A stretch of DNA of 64,000 nt, taken from a phage. The notes below the pieces were generated by a model that was given only the letters and a program-made list of their open reading frames with translations, was not told where the DNA came from and did not search any database. Shown here piece by piece: positions 3,350 to 28,869 of this stretch. A program made the position numbers and the translations under genes. The stretch lies in the sequence record PZ179880.1; one strand, written 5' to 3'. Position 1 is the first letter of the stretch. Every line of letters starts with the position of its first letter.

Positions 3350-3609
3350 AAAAGATTCCTTTTAATGTATCTTTTAGACCATTCTATCATATCATCATAA
3401 TCTAAAAAGTATTCATCAAATTCAGCCATGCAAACAACGCCTTGTGCTGTTTTTGATGTAATATAAATTATTCCAACATATCTAGAATCTTCTTCGGTAT
3501 AATCAATGTTTGCTATGAATTCATCATTAATGTCAAATGTCGAAAACTTCACAGTATGCATCCTTAATACAAGATACGGCCATATCTCGCAATGATTTAG
3601 GTGTGTCAT
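3346..3609 (-). CDS. Hypothetical protein (start uncertain; likely an internal Met)
   Basis: ORF between genes 47 and 46; 5' end overlaps the upstream ORF. Confidence 0.4.
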   Translation of the reverse strand: MTHLNHCEIWPYLVLRMHTVKFSTFDINDEFIANIDYTEEDSRYVGIIYITSKTAQGVVCMAEFDEYFLDYDDMIEWSKRYIKRNLL

Positions 3610-3796
3610 TATCTAAAATGTTGAAGTTAAAAGATACAGCCCAGTCAGTGCAGACCGTGACCTTTTTAATACAATTATCTTCAACCTCTAGCGGTTCAAA
3701 CCAATATTCAATAATTTCTTTATGCCCAATATCATCTTTTACTTCGCATTCAAAATGCTGACTCATCATAACATTTTTAAATTCATCAAAAGTCAT
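3533..3796 (-). CDS. Hypothetical protein (87 aa)
   Basis: ORF whose start overlaps the gene 47 stop (coupled arrangement). Confidence 0.5.
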   Translation of the reverse strand: MTFDEFKNVMMSQHFECEVKDDIGHKEIIEYWFEPLEVEDNCIKKVTVCTDWAVSFNFNILDNDTPKSLRDMAVSCIKDAYCEVFDI

Positions 3797-19564: not shown

Positions 19565-20092
19565 TTATGCGAGTACCGTCTTTAACCGTTCTTCAAACTT
19601 CCGAAGAGTATTTTGGCGTTCAGCTCTTTGCTTTTTGTAAGTTTCAATACGCTCTGAAATGAGAGTGTATCGTTCATTTACTGATTCTTTCATAAAATCA
19701 GGAATTTCACGAGAAGCTTTAATCTCATCAAATTTATCAATAACAGCTTGCTCTTCAGCAATTAAGTTATCATACATCAAAATATCTTTCTTGATGAACT
19801 CAATATCTTCTTGAGTTACACGAGATAATTTAGATGCTTTATCCTTTTTGTACTGTTCATTAGTATCACGAGACCAGTGTAATGTACGATTTTTATTCGT
19901 ATTCTTGTAAATTTCTACAATACCAATCTCATCGATAATAACGATCCAATTCCAACGGGATTTGTAAATTTGTCCTCCATCAACCGTGATTTCACCTCCG
20001 ATTGAGATGTCATTAAAGAACTTGCTTTGTGCTTCAGATTTAAATTTACCATCGTTATAATTTACTAAGTTGAAAATATCTTTAGCGTTCAT
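19565..20092 (-). CDS. Hypothetical protein (175 aa)
   Basis: ORF downstream of an early promoter with an RBS-pairing inverted repeat. Confidence 0.5.
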   Translation of the reverse strand: MNAKDIFNLVNYNDGKFKSEAQSKFFNDISIGGEITVDGGQIYKSRWNWIVIIDEIGIVEIYKNTNKNRTLHWSRDTNEQYKKDKASKLSRVTQEDIEFIKKDILMYDNLIAEEQAVIDKFDEIKASREIPDFMKESVNERYTLISERIETYKKQRAERQNTLRKFEERLKTVLA

Positions 20093-23595: not shown

Positions 23596-24117
23596 TTATC
23601 CTTTCATTGAAGGTGTAACAGTTGTTAAATACTTAATCATAGCTTCAGCTTCTGATTTTGATAATGAAATTTCTTCATTGTTTTGACGAATAGAAATAAA
23701 ATCCGGATGACGGTCACCACCAGCTTTTAAAACACACATATAAGTATCAGTTTCATCTTCAATATCTGAAATGATTGAAGCAGTTCCACACGAATGTGGT
23801 TTTTGATAAATCAATACAGCTTTTCTTCCACCATTTGACTGTTCATAAACTTTTAATACATCAAACAAATCACTTCTTTTATCAATAGCTAAAATGTTAT
23901 TTTCATCTTCAATGTTAAATCCTTCGGATACTTCATAAAGTGTCACCCATAAATCACCTATATCGATAGTAGCATTTTCCTTTCCATGACTTTCAAGAGC
24001 ATGACAAATTTTCTTAATTTCGTCATAACTCATTTTAATAATATCATCTCCTTGAATAAGGAAGATGTCATTTTTAAATTCAACACGAATTAAACCGCTT
24101 CCACTTGAAATAAACAT
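23596..24117 (-). CDS. Hypothetical protein (173 aa), paralogue of the next ORF
   Basis: C-terminal LSKSEAEAMIKYLTTVTPSM aligns with FTKDEAIALKTYLDSVIPTM of ORF 24124-24678. Confidence 0.5.
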   Translation of the reverse strand: MFISSGSGLIRVEFKNDIFLIQGDDIIKMSYDEIKKICHALESHGKENATIDIGDLWVTLYEVSEGFNIEDENNILAIDKRSDLFDVLKVYEQSNGGRKAVLIYQKPHSCGTASIISDIEDETDTYMCVLKAGGDRHPDFISIRQNNEEISLSKSEAEAMIKYLTTVTPSMKG

Positions 24118-24123
24118 ATTTCC

Positions 24124-24678
24124 TCACTTTGAAATCATAGTTGGAATGACAGAATCAAGATAAGTCTTTAACGCAATAGCTTCGTCTTTGGTAAATGTGA
24201 CAATATGTGATCGAAAATCGTCAATTTGGCGAATAGTTAAGACATCTCCCTCTTCATAACATTTTGATACATTTAAAAGAGTTTCATCATTCTGATTGCA
24301 AGCGTTAGTAATAATAGCATTGCAATTTTTGAGCCATTTTAAACTATGTTTTCTTTCATTAGAATAATAAAAATATTTAATCTTAGCTATAAAACTATCC
24401 CAATGGATAACTGATAAACACATTGACTCACTTTTAATATTAAATCCTGGGCATGAAGAATAAAAATGAATTTTGTGCTCATCATTGATGCTTACTATTT
24501 TATCAGTATAAGGATATTCAATTTGGGTTAAATGAATGATTTCACTAGGCGTAAAATATAGCATATCGTCTTCTTGCGTCAAACGATACATGTTATTTAC
24601 TTTTTCTATAGCCAATTCACCAAAAAGCGGACTAACTTCTAATACTAATCGTTTCATATTAATCCTTTTTATTGGCAT
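24124..24678 (-). CDS. Hypothetical protein (184 aa), paralogue of the previous ORF
   Basis: Shared C-terminal motif. Confidence 0.5.
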   Translation of the reverse strand: MPIKRINMKRLVLEVSPLFGELAIEKVNNMYRLTQEDDMLYFTPSEIIHLTQIEYPYTDKIVSINDEHKIHFYSSCPGFNIKSESMCLSVIHWDSFIAKIKYFYYSNERKHSLKWLKNCNAIITNACNQNDETLLNVSKCYEEGDVLTIRQIDDFRSHIVTFTKDEAIALKTYLDSVIPTMISK

Positions 24679-24937
24679 GAATTTGTTCTAAAATTTTAGA
24701 GTATTCCTTTGTATCAGATTTACGTACAATCGATACACTATAAGGCATACTATCGGTATCTTTTATAAAGCGTTCCAAATGACACTCTAACAAAATTTCT
24801 GGGTTATAAATCGTGTACATCAAATTACCTGTTGCTCCACGATATTGACAGATTTCTACTGATTGAGCATCATTCCACAATTTTGTTAAGACTAAATCGC
24901 CTACTTCTAATTTAGGAAAGCCCATGTTATTCACCAA
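24659..24937 (-). CDS. Hypothetical protein (92 aa)
   Basis: ORF. Confidence 0.45.
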   Translation of the reverse strand: MVNNMGFPKLEVGDLVLTKLWNDAQSVEICQYRGATGNLMYTIYNPEILLECHLERFIKDTDSMPYSVSIVRKSDTKEYSKILEQIHANKKD

Positions 24938-25112
24938 TTAAAGTTTCAATATAAGAATCAAGATTTACTTTAGCTTCTTCCATAAGAGTTTTGTATTTAA
25001 TCTTGTTAGCATGTCCGGAGAAAGCTGATTCATCAATAATTGTTGATGTATGAACAGCTTTACTATACGTCTCAATTAATTCTCTTAATTTAAAAGCCTG
25101 CTCACTTGTCAT
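24927..25112 (-). CDS. Small helical protein (61 aa), member of a short paralogue family
   Basis: N-terminus MTSEQAFKLRELIETY resembles four other small ORFs. Confidence 0.45.
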   Translation of the reverse strand: MTSEQAFKLRELIETYSKAVHTSTIIDESAFSGHANKIKYKTLMEEAKVNLDSYIETLIGE

Positions 25113-25281
25113 TACATACTCCTTTGAATAATATCAATAATGTTGTTCACCAGATTATAAGTAAACATTGGGTAATTATATTGAATCATCACATACACAA
25201 CAAACAAAACTTTCATTCTCTTCTCCTTGGCAGTTGACAAGATTACTATACCATAACCTTGCCAACTTGTAAACCATTAAA

Positions 25282-25452
25282 TGACGTTTTCAATAAAATT
25301 CTGAAGCTTTGTATGAGCATCAACCATGATTTTCAATTCTTCTTTAGCGAAAGCTGTACCTCTTTCACGAGAAGAACATTCATAGTCAGAAACTGCATTA
25401 GCATATTCTTCAATTAGCTTCATTAAAAACATCTGCTTTTCAGTTTTCATTA
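25282..25452 (-). CDS. Small helical protein (57 aa, below ORF-track cutoff), same family
   Basis: Translation MKTEKQMFLMKLIEEYANAV... Confidence 0.35.
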
Positions 25453-25634
25453 TTCCACCTAATCATTTCAAGATATTGAACTAACTTAGCTTTAGATTTA
25501 TCCAAATCCTTTTTAGCTGCTTCTATACCATCGTATGAATATCCTTCACAATGCTCAACTGCTAATTGATATGAATCTATTTCAATATCACGTGCTAATT
25601 TAATGATTTTTTCAAACTGTTCGCGTGTTAGCAT
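25440..25634 (-). CDS. Small helical protein (64 aa), same family
   Basis: N-terminus MLTREQFEKIIKLARDIE. Confidence 0.45.
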   Translation of the reverse strand: MLTREQFEKIIKLARDIEIDSYQLAVEHCEGYSYDGIEAAKKDLDKSKAKLVQYLEMIRWNNEN

Positions 25635-25636
25635 AC

Positions 25637-25819
25637 TTACACTCTCGTATTATGATCGATAATTTCATCAAGAAACATATCTAACGCTTCTACAGCATTA
25701 TCAACTTTAGCTTCAAATTCTTCAATACCTGATAAGGCAAAGTTAATGCGTTCCTCATCTGCTTTGCGAATTAAAGCTATCAATTCCTTAATTTTATCCG
25801 CTTGTTCAATGCTAGTCAT
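25637..25819 (-). CDS. Small helical protein (about 60 aa from [14 protein letters not shown]), same family
   Basis: Start placed at an internal Met that restores the family N-terminal motif. Confidence 0.4.
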   Translation of the reverse strand: MTSIEQADKIKELIALIRKADEERINFALSGIEEFEAKVDNAVEALDMFLDEIIDHNTRV

Positions 25820-26007
25820 TATTCCACCACATATGAAAGAGAGAATATTGCACACGCCATATGAGTTGCAACTTCATCACACATATCATAACGTTTCTTA
25901 AGAAGTTCTACAAGTTCTTCACTAGTGACTTCATCCATGTCGACGAAAAAATCACCATTAATGATGACATAGATATTTCCTTCTTGATTAAGTGCTTCAA
26001 TTTTCAT
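25819..26007 (-). CDS. Hypothetical protein (62 aa from MKIEALNQ)
   Basis: RBS GAGGAG precedes this Met; the upstream part of the track ORF is an early promoter (TTTACT...TACTAT). Confidence 0.45.
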
Positions 26008-26080
26008 GATGTTCTCCTCTTTATCCGATGGTTGTATAGTACCACAGCTCAAACGGAAAGTAAACCGGTAAAATGAAAAA

Positions 26081-26098
26081 AGTCTCCCGAAGGAGACT
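26081..26098 (-). terminator. UUCG-tetraloop hairpin
   Basis: agtctcccgaaggagact. Confidence 0.45.
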
Positions 26099-26102
26099 AA
26101 TG

Positions 26103-26489
26103 TTATTCGAGGGAAAGAAGATACTTACTCTGGTAAAACATTCCAGTAATATCATCTATCGTGCTTTGGATGGCTGGAGGCATTTCTTTATAAATGCTGT
26201 TAGATTGGTCTAGTATGCGATCAATCATTTTAATTGTGTCGGTAGGAAGTTTACTAGCATCTGGAATTGAAGGTGTGTATTTTCTACCAGAATACCCCAA
26301 ATATTGCTCACCAAATTTATCAATCAAATCTGGCAACTCGGAGAAAATAAAATCGTATGCTTTGTGTCTAGCATAACTTTTAGTTTCAAAATGTGCAGAA
26401 TGAAAATAAGCTTGTGCAGCCATTAATAAACCTAAGTATTCATCTGCCTTTGAAGGTTTTCCACTTTGTGAAAAGTCGCTGAATTTCAT
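26103..26489 (-). CDS. Hypothetical protein (128 aa)
   Basis: ORF immediately upstream of rI. Confidence 0.5.
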
Positions 26490-26779
26490 TCAGTCTCCAA
26501 TTTAATGTTCATAATTCTAGCGTATGATTGTGCCATCTCCGCGCCTCGCTCTATACATTCAAAATCGGAAGAGCACGGGTCATTTTTATAAGTCGTTCGC
26601 ATAAAACTATAGAACTGTTCAGATGATTCTACGCTTTTGTTTTCAAAAAGCATATAAACGTGTCTAATACCAGATTCCATAAATTTATCAAAATGAGGAT
26701 CGACATTCGCTTCAATTGGTGGAGATAAAGCAAACGCTAATCCTAGCATGGCAAATAGTGCCGTTGCTTTTAAGGCCAT
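26486..26779 (-). CDS. rI: Lysis-inhibition regulator RI (97 aa, signal-anchor protein)
   Basis: MALKATALFAMLGLAFALSPPIEANVDPHFDKFMESGIRHVYMLFENKS matches T4 RI; hydrophobic N-terminal anchor. Confidence 0.85.
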   Translation of the reverse strand: MALKATALFAMLGLAFALSPPIEANVDPHFDKFMESGIRHVYMLFENKSVESSEQFYSFMRTTYKNDPCSSDFECIERGAEMAQSYARIMNIKLETE

Positions 26780-26791
26780 AAAGGCCTCCTA

Positions 26792-27004
26792 TCATTTTTG
26801 TCCTGTATTTACTTTATGCCGATGCACGGCCTTAACTTTATCAAGGTATTTTTCAAAATTTCGCAATCTAGTATAGTCTGCCGGAGATTGGTTGAGTGAT
26901 ACTTCTCGACGCAAAGCTGAAATGATATTTCCAACTTCCCTACGAATTTCATCTAATTGAAGAACAGTAAGATTGCGAAGTTGCTTTTCAGTTAATTGTA
27001 GCAT
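26792..27004 (-). CDS. Hypothetical protein (70 aa)
   Basis: ORF between tk and rI. Confidence 0.45.
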
Positions 27005-27046
27005 ATATACCCCTTTAGTTAGATAAACCTATTTATAACTTTTGCA

Positions 27047-27628
27047 CTAACCGAGCTTTTTAGTTAATTCATTCCAATGTTTTCTACACAAAGAAACATA
27101 AATTTCATCACCAATACAGATTTGATTACCTTCTTTAACTGGTGTTCCATCTTCCATTAATCGAGCTGTCATAATCGCTTTTTTACCGCAATGACAAACT
27201 GCCTTTAGTTCAATAAGTTTATCTGCAATCGCCAAAAGTTCTTTAGAACCTTCAAATAATTTTCCGGCGAAATCAGTCCTTAGACCATAAGCCATAACAG
27301 GAACATTATATGTATCAACAATTCGACTTAATTGATGCACCTGTTCAGTTTTTAAAAACTGGGCTTCATCTACAAATACACAATGAATATCTTTTTGTGC
27401 TTCAGCCCATTTATAGAACTCAAAAATATCCATATCATCCGTAATAATATTCGCTTCCTGCTTAATTCCAATGCGAGAAACGACTTCACAGACAGAATCG
27501 CGAGTATCAATAGCAGGCTTAAGAACTAATACACCCATTCCGCGTTCTTTATAATTATGTGCAGCAGTCAAAAGAGAAGCAGATTTTCCAGCATTCATTG
27601 CTGCGTAAGTAAAAATTAAACTCGCCAT
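27047..27628 (-). CDS. tk: Thymidine kinase (193 aa)
   Basis: P-loop MNAGKSASLL, C-terminal zinc-binding CxxC...CxxH; T4 Tk length. Confidence 0.95.
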   Translation of the reverse strand: MASLIFTYAAMNAGKSASLLTAAHNYKERGMGVLVLKPAIDTRDSVCEVVSRIGIKQEANIITDDMDIFEFYKWAEAQKDIHCVFVDEAQFLKTEQVHQLSRIVDTYNVPVMAYGLRTDFAGKLFEGSKELLAIADKLIELKAVCHCGKKAIMTARLMEDGTPVKEGNQICIGDEIYVSLCRKHWNELTKKLG

Positions 27629-27637
27629 ATCACCTTC

Positions 27638-27823
27638 TTAAAGCATATTCACATAAGCTATTAATTCGTTTTCTTTCTTATCAAACCGATCAGCAAATTC
27701 TTCTTGCTGTTCGGGAGATAGCGGGCCGTATTCATCATAAAAGGTGTTTGCTTCTGTATGCTCATCTAGAAGTTCATGGATAAGCTCAAACAATTTATCT
27801 TTTTGTTCTTTACTCAGACTCAT
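27638..27823 (-). CDS. Small acidic helical protein (61 aa), same small-protein family
   Basis: N-terminus MSLSKEQKDKLFELIHELL. Confidence 0.45.
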   Translation of the reverse strand: MSLSKEQKDKLFELIHELLDEHTEANTFYDEYGPLSPEQQEEFADRFDKKENELIAYVNML

Positions 27824-27989
27824 ATATTAATTTCCAGGAGTTTTAAAATAATTCGCTTTTGCTTAAATATTTCCATAGTTAAATGACCAGTATCTTTTTG
27901 ACCGATTCCAATGGCAAAACCTTTATTGACAGCGAGTTCAATTAAATTATCAAGCTCACGTAACACTTCATACTGTAACTCAAAACTAT

Positions 27990-28202
27990 TCATTTCGGTT
28001 TACCTTCTTTAACGAAATCTGGATAAGGATAAAATCCCGAATAAAATCCTTCACCTTTATGATTGATGCATCCTTTATTAGAACAATAACACCAATAATC
28101 GAAATCACAAGCCATTTCATCGTTGCATAAAGCAAAAACAACTGGCCATTTACACTTTTCACAATGGGCATTTTTAAGAATACTAGTTTGGCTCATAACC
28201 AT
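27990..28202 (-). CDS. Cys-rich hypothetical protein (70 aa)
   Basis: HCEKCKW...CNDEMACDFDYWCYCSNKGCINH suggests metal binding. Confidence 0.45.
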   Translation of the reverse strand: MVMSQTSILKNAHCEKCKWPVVFALCNDEMACDFDYWCYCSNKGCINHKGEGFYSGFYPYPDFVKEGKPK

Positions 28203-28420
28203 GTAACCTTTAAGCAGTATTCTTCTACATGCTGTTTACGACCTTTCTTATCAATAAAGGTATATTCAACGAATGTTCCAATGTAGTCTTTATCTACATC
28301 ATGCGGACTATTAATTGGACATTTAGTACGGCAAATGCGTTCCCATTGACGAATAATTACTGCCTTATTCTTTGGGTCATATGGATGTGGATAATGTATA
28401 TTCATAATAACGGTTCCCAA
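28193..28420 (-). CDS. Hypothetical protein (75 aa)
   Basis: ORF. Confidence 0.45.
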   Translation of the reverse strand: MGTVIMNIHYPHPYDPKNKAVIIRQWERICRTKCPINSPHDVDKDYIGTFVEYTFIDKKGRKQHVEEYCLKVTWL

Positions 28421-28869
28421 TCAACAATCACAATTTCTAATTTAGAGGAATATGTATCTAAAATCCCCTCAATAATATCCCAGTTCCCTTTACCTATGCC
28501 TGCACCAATCCTAGGCATATAGATTGTAGGTTTAATCAGTTTATTTTCACCAAACTCATTTAATTCTAACATACAATTCATTAAAGCGGAATACTCAAAA
28601 TTTGGCCCTGGTTGAAATTGAGTATAAAGGTTGAAGCAATACGCTTTATGAGTCCTAAAGTATTTTTCATAGACTGAGTAAGAACCGAGTTTAGTTACAT
28701 CACCCCATTCAGTCTGTAATTTATCAGCTTCCAAAATTTTAGGGAAAGCTTTGGTTAATTGACCCGCTACGCCTGAACCCATAGTATGAAAACAATTGCA
28801 TCCATGCGCAATATTTTTACCTTCAGCGAAAAGGGCGACAATATCGCCCTTGATATATTTTACAATCAT
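28402..28869 (-). CDS. Macro-domain protein (ADP-ribose binding/processing fold, 155 aa)
   Basis: Macro-domain-like signature HGCNCFHTMGSGVAG and GAGIGKG glycine-rich loop. Confidence 0.55.
   Translation of the reverse strand: MIVKYIKGDIVALFAEGKNIAHGCNCFHTMGSGVAGQLTKAFPKILEADKLQTEWGDVTKLGSYSVYEKYFRTHKAYCFNLYTQFQPGPNFEYSALMNCMLELNEFGENKLIKPTIYMPRIGAGIGKGNWDIIEGILDTYSSKLEIVIVDWEPLL

Follow-up and report, generated by a model that had tools for sequence, protein, structure and literature searches.

About a third of the proteins of phage T4, most of the early ones included, have no known function (PMC9697503). The closest described counterparts of the genes considered here are the small T4 genes mobD.2a, mobD.3, mobD.4, tk.1, and tk.2. 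T4 MobD.3 and MobD.4 belong to the early class as RNA and as protein alike, Tk.1 and Tk.2 to the early class as RNA and to the middle class as protein, and for MobD.2a the RNA is present and the protein was undetected (PMC9697503, supplement). Knock-down of each of these genes by CRISPRi-ART was scored 'Not Fit', meaning no fitness effect in the laboratory host (PMC11879866, supplement), and the T4 block nrdC.11-mobD.3 can be deleted (PMC9825161). The DNA analysed here, a window of 64,000 nucleotides (nt) from sequence record PZ179880.1, comes from a Tequatrovirus (T4-like) phage. Over the segment 24600-28000 the window shares 99% identity with Yersinia phage PYPS2T and 97-98% with hundreds of Tequatrovirus genomes. 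The segment carries five short open reading frames (ORFs), designated A to E, which almost certainly form a real, expressed, and accessory paralogous family of acidic two-helix hairpins that has already been catalogued. The paralogy is captured by Pfam family DUF7438 (PF24219) and by PHROGs 653, 2758, and 4859. No functional study was found in the literature on DUF7438, mobD.x, and tk.1 with T4.

All five ORFs lie on the minus strand. A (24927..25112) is an accessory member of 61 amino acids (aa) with an isoelectric point (pI) of 5.3. B (25277..25450) encodes 57 aa plus stop (pI 5.3), C (25440..25634) 64 aa (pI 5.0), D (25637..25819) 60 aa (pI 4.4, net charge -8), and E (27638..27823) 61 aa (pI 4.3, net charge -10). 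The original prediction, made from the letters of the window, had placed A, C, D, and E exactly, and B had to be corrected from 25282-25452. It had also given lengths of 57-72 aa; the value of 72 aa belongs to a GTG-extended form of D (25637-25855), and the five ORFs span 57-64 aa. The ATG at 25819 is the likely start of D because it overlaps the mobD.5 stop and because the product then matches T4 MobD.4 (60 aa). The N-terminal pattern on which the family had been proposed fits D alone in its literal form, but a form tolerant of a one-residue shift in register matches precisely the five ORFs and none other of the 922 in the window.

Pairwise BLASTP among the five gave 24-32% identity, with a best E-value of 1e-4 (A/B) and several pairs not significant. 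These values are too weak, and homology therefore rests on profiles. When compared with the DUF7438 model, which has 57 positions and a gathering cut-off of 25 bits, A, B, C, D, and E scored 57.8, 54.2, 64.1, 49.6, and 68.5 bits, respectively, and the matches covered model positions 1-57, 1-56, or 3-57. Hidden Markov models (HMMs) were then built from 116 database homologues sorted into five orthogroups. Each was trained on four orthogroups at a time, the member's own being left out to avoid circularity, and used to search the 922 stop-to-stop ORFs of the window, about 918 of which were non-training ORFs. In each of the five tests the best hit outside the training set was the left-out member (E = 1.5e-6 for A and 0.071, 0.029, 8.7e-5, and 0.066 in the others). 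Alignment of the orthogroups in hhalign linked A with B (E = 1e-4), C with D (2e-5), C with E (3e-4), and D with E (5e-4), while some pairs, e.g., A-C and B-C, stayed unlinked. A was assigned to PHROG 4859 (5e-39), B to PHROG 2758, and both C and D to PHROG 653. The paralogy claimed in the original prediction is thus borne out concordantly by the Pfam matches, the left-out HMMs, and hhalign. HMM building was among the checks that it had proposed, and the similarity on formal alignment that it had made decisive is upheld by the profile tests, though several of the BLASTP pairs were not significant. Membership in DUF7438 accordingly follows from scores over the full model, recognition of each left-out member, and a hairpin of about 55-70 aa, the fold having been modelled for E and C. 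No sixth DUF7438 member was found in the window by Pfam and HMM search of the ORFs. The rI.1 product (26792-27004) and a 57-aa ORF at 27820-27993 were considered as extra members and rejected; both are short and helical, but neither is DUF7438 and each has its own PHROG (3452 for the latter).

For E, AlphaFold2 run with the family alignment predicts two antiparallel helices (residues 5-32 and 37-60) that form a hairpin, at a predicted local distance difference test (pLDDT) value of 91.7. The hairpin predicted for C is kinked and has three helices, 4-16, 21-28, and 34-63 (pLDDT 83). The expectation that the members are short and helical was confirmed for these two, which were the ones modelled. 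Column conservation was determined from 24 members non-redundant at 70% identity and is given in E numbering. Positions T/S4, E6, Q7, and K10 are conserved, and hydrophobic columns occur at 11, 14, 15, 18, 21, and 25 of helix 1 and at 43, 47, 50, 54, 57, 58, and 61 of helix 2. L14 is kept in 96% of the members, L54 is invariant, and position 57 is aromatic throughout. We read T/S-x-E-Q as a probable helix N-capping motif and the other conserved positions as an a/d hydrophobic core, and the motif of the original prediction would therefore represent scaffold and not an active site. Pairs of adjacent hydrophobic positions near the hairpin's open end (14/15 and 57/58) suggest dimerisation or partner binding as in Rop.

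The nearest structures in BFVD are small uncharacterised proteins of T4-like phages of Escherichia, Yersinia, Citrobacter, Enterobacter, and Klebsiella, plus one of the N4-like phage EcP1. A PDB sequence search and NCBIfam gave no match for the members, and PADLOC, with its defence-side models, gave no meaningful match. In Pfam, BFVD, PADLOC, and the PDB (by sequence and by structure), no sequence or specific structural likeness of the members to any characterised inhibitor was found. The top Foldseek matches of the hairpin in PDB were histidine-kinase DHp domains (e.g., HK853), with 22-25% identity over about 60 residues. DHp domains, too, are helical hairpins whose dimers make a four-helix bundle, but with E-values of 0.16 or worse and TM-scores of about 0.5 the relationship was treated as chance. 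The histidine in the 'IHELL' of E, which is not conserved in DUF7438, may drive this match.

The hairpin tip differs in behaviour between orthogroups, as judged from the mean identity of the middle region and of the ends within each orthogroup. In B, D, and E the tip is hypervariable, with indels, and the middle reaches 0.53-0.61 against 0.70-0.90 for the ends (0.61 against 0.88-0.90 in D). Alleles of D range from 60 to 70 aa owing to tip insertions and those of E from 53 to 61 aa. C differs in that its tip motif, HCEGYSYxGIE, is retained across genera and its middle matches the ends in conservation (0.81). Alleles are nearly identical to one another or else saturated. Asp and Glu make up 25-26% of D and E, with pI of 4.3-4.4, while A, B, and C have a net charge of -2 to -3 and pI of 5.0-5.3.

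The minus-strand gene order of the window matches that of T4, i.e., tk.x, tk, rI.1, rI, rI.-1, mobD.5, mobD.4, and onward. C is the orthologue of T4 MobD.3 (97% identity) and D that of T4 MobD.4 (95% identity). B corresponds to T4 mobD.2a in its intact state and is 89% identical to MobD.2a over 38 aa. When T4 locus 3550-3666 (NC_000866) was aligned as DNA with window 25277-25450, T4 mobD.2a proved to be cut to 38 aa by a deletion of 1 nt; the intact 57-aa gene is present also in most relatives. E is a divergent allele of T4 Tk.2, not of Tk.1, with 54% aa and 68.5% nt identity. It lies within a variable, 68%-identical cassette at 27629-28191, the flanks of which are 97% and 98.8% identical to T4. 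A has no T4 counterpart and is absent from Bas37 as well; T4 lacks the segment 24656-25100 (about 445 bp), and with it both A and its Tudor-domain neighbour. DUF7438 has a sixth type, T4 Tk.1, which scored 55.6 bits. The two sets differ in that T4 has the Tk.1 type and no A, whereas the window phage has A and no Tk.1 type.

Several neighbouring genes of these loci were recorded. Directly downstream of A, a Phage_tudor protein (PF24144, E = 4.9e-40) is encoded at 24659-24925 on the minus strand, and its homologues are found in 16 of the retrieved loci, some of them without an A-type gene. In the variable cassette between E and tk.3 (27820-28202, minus strand) are the 57-aa ORF of PHROG 3452 and a gene for a 70-aa Cys-rich protein (Phage_zn_bind, E = 2.6e-29). 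T4 lacks both and has tk.1 between tk and tk.2 instead.

An exhaustive profile search of 1.84 billion representatives returned only 27 clusters (50% identity), most of whose members, with few exceptions, measure 50-70 aa, and with so few clusters the family is narrow. DUF7438 members occur in Tequatrovirus, in Mosigvirus (RB69 Tk.2), and in other T4-like phages. The family also crosses phage families. Gp78 of the N4-like Gamaleyavirus IME11 scored 51 bits and is coded among small ORFs adjoining the RNAP1 subunit A gene, and a further member is on a 62.7-kb contig that bears an integrase. Forty IMG/VR loci anchored on tk carried from 0 to 5 members each within 5 kb of that gene. By tblastn, E-type genes were found in 742 phage records with a bimodal distribution of identity (364 at >=95% and 293 below 60%), the B type in 643, the A type in 193, and the T4 Tk.1 type in 195. 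The E- and B-type records are nearly all full length. Members have been gained or lost between near-identical genomes, which are mosaic in their alleles as well.

The genes are tightly packed in what are probably separate transcription units. A terminator-like hairpin at 26098-26081 on the minus strand (AGTCTCC-TTCG-GGAGACT followed by a T run), identified by scan and in the sequence just after rI.-1, parts the tk-rI unit from the mobD.5-D-C-B unit. The latter likely starts at an early promoter upstream of mobD.5 at 26065-26036 (minus strand; GTTTAC, 18 nt, TACTAT, with TG upstream), which was read from the sequence and scored under the threshold in the consensus scan; in T4, a transcript from the mobD.5 promoter was found by primer extension (PMC1702504). 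Between B and the mobD.2-like ORF is a promoter-like site at 25273-25245 (minus strand; TTTACA, 17 nt, TATAGT, with TG upstream; 10/12 matches in the scan). The stretch is nearly identical in T4, and transcription of the mobD.2-like ORF and A likely begins at the predicted site. The ATG of A overlaps the stop of the mobD.2-like ORF (TAATG), with AGGAG 7 nt upstream. The start of D overlaps the mobD.5 stop, D and C are separated by 2 nt, and the last 11 nt of C are shared with B. The start of E is overlapped by 4 nt by the upstream ORF, and its end is 9 nt before tk. A to D sit 1.2-2.1 kb from tk, in transcription units other than that of tk. B and D have an identical 13-nt ribosome-binding-site/start stretch, GGTGGAATAATGA (25448-25460 and 25817-25829, minus strand), which may be a trace of duplication or a convergent ribosome-binding site.

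Small early phage inhibitors of host proteins are comparable to these proteins in size, early expression, laboratory dispensability, and location in hyperplastic early regions. The original prediction had regarded the five as early genes, which agrees with the early transcription of the T4 orthologues, and as possible inhibitors of host factors. The reading that we favour, tentatively and with somewhat less than even confidence, is stoichiometric binding of host proteins in takeover or counter-defence, the specificity varying among paralogues and alleles. It is favoured because of early timing, dispensability in a laboratory strain, mosaic gain and loss, variable tips, and spread to unrelated phages; the last speaks against a partner specific to T4. 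A role as inhibitors of host factors or of defences is thus plausible on circumstantial support.

In the mechanism proposed, the conserved positions would build a hairpin scaffold consisting of the N-cap T/S-x-E-Q, an a/d stripe on each helix, and a hydrophobic face broadened at the open end. In E numbering the stripe would comprise L11, L14, I15, and L18 together with F47, L54, Y/F57, V/I58, and L61. An acidic hairpin of about 60 residues, made from tightly packed early units, could act stoichiometrically as a protein-binding module. It might bind either as a Rop-like dimer, i.e., a four-helix bundle, or by its hydrophobic face packed onto helices of the partner. The partners would be host proteins, namely takeover targets or defence components, and paralogues and alleles would differ in specificity, carried largely by the variable surface and the hairpin tip. 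We infer oligomerisation, binding, and a host protein as the target.

A more far-reaching version, which we consider speculative and improbable as a whole, is that DUF7438 serves as an alpha-hairpin scaffold for diversifying binders. Its N-cap and heptad core would be constant and the tip and surface varied by substitution, indels, and cassette exchange. The several co-expressed paralogues, possibly also as heterodimers, would provide T4-like phages with a small repertoire in which each neutralises a different host defence protein or variant of a host factor, and the scaffold would be portable enough to have reached an N4-like phage and an integrase-bearing, presumably temperate, phage.

Several observations weigh against a host-directed role. 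The fold is uninformative about function. Frameshifted or truncated variants are common (T4 mobD.2a; P0104, P0050, P0109, and P0097), and weak selection therefore also fits. The variable tip can be simply an unconstrained loop, and since the tip of C is conserved, one mechanism for all five is not assured. For no member has a partner, toxicity, or a host-range or anti-defence phenotype been recorded. In the accessible part of the HIDEN-SEQ preprint (10.1101/2025.11.20.689424), which applied the method to T4 and Bas37 on clinical isolates, no member is named as one of the hits, and the Bas37 members bas37_0211-0213 and 0219 are unmentioned in that part of the text. Bas37 (KarlGJung, MZ501089) is of the same species as the closest relative of the window. 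The preprint reports bas37_0203 as an inhibitor of Druantia type III. This gene, which its numbering made a candidate, was ruled out as a family member, as it is a 175-aa gene of the nrdC region and not DUF7438. The window has a 175-aa ORF at 19568-20092 (minus strand) that is 99.4% identical to Bas37_0203 and has no Pfam domain.

Among the alternatives, a phage-internal role, in which the hairpins are adaptor or regulatory subunits of phage proteins such as thymidine kinase or the nucleotide-metabolism machinery, survives best and is nevertheless unlikely. A member ends <=15 nt before tk in 17 of the 40 tk loci, as E does in the window, and lies within 1 kb upstream of it in 25; this proximity persists across genera whose tk is only about 70% identical. 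Against this, common descent alone predicts conserved gene order in T4-like genomes, 15 of the 40 loci have no member, and A to D belong to transcription units away from tk. The members of N4-like and integrase-bearing phages are in unrelated contexts, and knock-down has no phenotype.

A nucleic-acid-related role is slightly less likely again. It could be DNA mimicry by the very acidic D and E or a Rop-like four-helix bundle binding RNA or DNA structures. For DNA mimicry, surface Asp and Glu of about 20-30% and a pI below 5 would be looked for family-wide. D and E lie within these ranges, but A, B, and C, with their mild acidity, do not clearly do so, and a strong negative charge is therefore not common to the whole family. 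Acidic proteins, moreover, do not bind nucleic acid directly. Rop/Rom, the ColE1 repressor of primer, is a helical hairpin of 63 aa that dimerises into a four-helix bundle, but it has no sequence relationship to DUF7438 (no Pfam Rop match at E <= 1), and structurally it was one among 1625 generic hairpin hits. Its gene is carried by plasmids and it binds kissing complexes of RNA, whereas there is no hint of such binding for DUF7438.

That the genes are nearly neutral cargo, i.e., duplicating and decaying ORFs with little or no current function in a hyperplastic region, is doubtful to a still greater degree. The frameshifted T4 copy of B with no detected protein, the many truncated or fused variants in databases, the lack of a knock-down phenotype, and the gain and loss of members between near-identical genomes are all as expected from such cargo. 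It is harder to reconcile with open frames, heptad core, and N-cap kept across genera and even phage families, with the conserved ends of B, D, and E and the conserved tip of C, with proteins made at detectable levels, or with E- and B-type genes that are nearly all full length in 640-740 records. Finally, convergence of short amphipathic helices with biased composition, in place of homology, was tested and is disfavoured to the point of being hardly credible, since the weak BLASTP pairs and the failure of hhalign for some orthogroup pairs are outweighed by the first rank of every omitted member, a relaxed motif specific to the five ORFs, Pfam scores about twice the cut-off or higher, and a common length, architecture, and clustered genomic position.

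Two labels attached to members in databases were rejected. 'Helicase loader' (PHROG 4859 and A-type proteins in RefSeq) is regarded as an annotation artefact, as it occurs solely as an annotation string, A has 61 aa, and DUF7438 is its sole Pfam match above cut-off; the T4 helicase loader gp59 has about 217 aa. 'Molybdopterin-guanine dinucleotide biosynthesis protein MobD' (T4 MobD.4 and homologues in PYPS2T) has no such match in Pfam or NCBIfam and is evidently an expansion of the T4 gene name mobD. Other product names in RefSeq records NC_000866 and NC_054944 appear wrongly propagated. The label 'ABC transporter ATP-binding protein' sits on a 70-aa ORF, and 'Starvation-inducible transcriptional regulator' is given to rI.-1, the sole Pfam match of which is DUF5856.

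In the wider neighbourhood, MobD.1-like proteins of 173 and 184 aa are encoded at 23596-24117 and 24124-24678, both on the minus strand. They are 26% identical (BLASTP E = 8e-8), and each carries the Pfam 'putative transcription factor' domains T4_y05I_N and T4_y05I_C; T4 has a single copy. The T4 homing endonuclease gene mobD occupies the place of the 153-aa and 173-aa ORFs of the window. Tk.4 (28402-28869, minus strand) is a Macro-domain protein (PF01661, 27.7 bits), as known for T4.

The analysis adds the corrected T4 gene correspondence of each copy, the reading of the motif as scaffold, the distinction between hypervariable-tip B, D, and E and conserved-tip C, and the spread of the family across phage families. 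These results narrow the experiments and establish no function. With four or five copies per genome that are made early, the family is a reasonable place to seek host-takeover or counter-defence factors.

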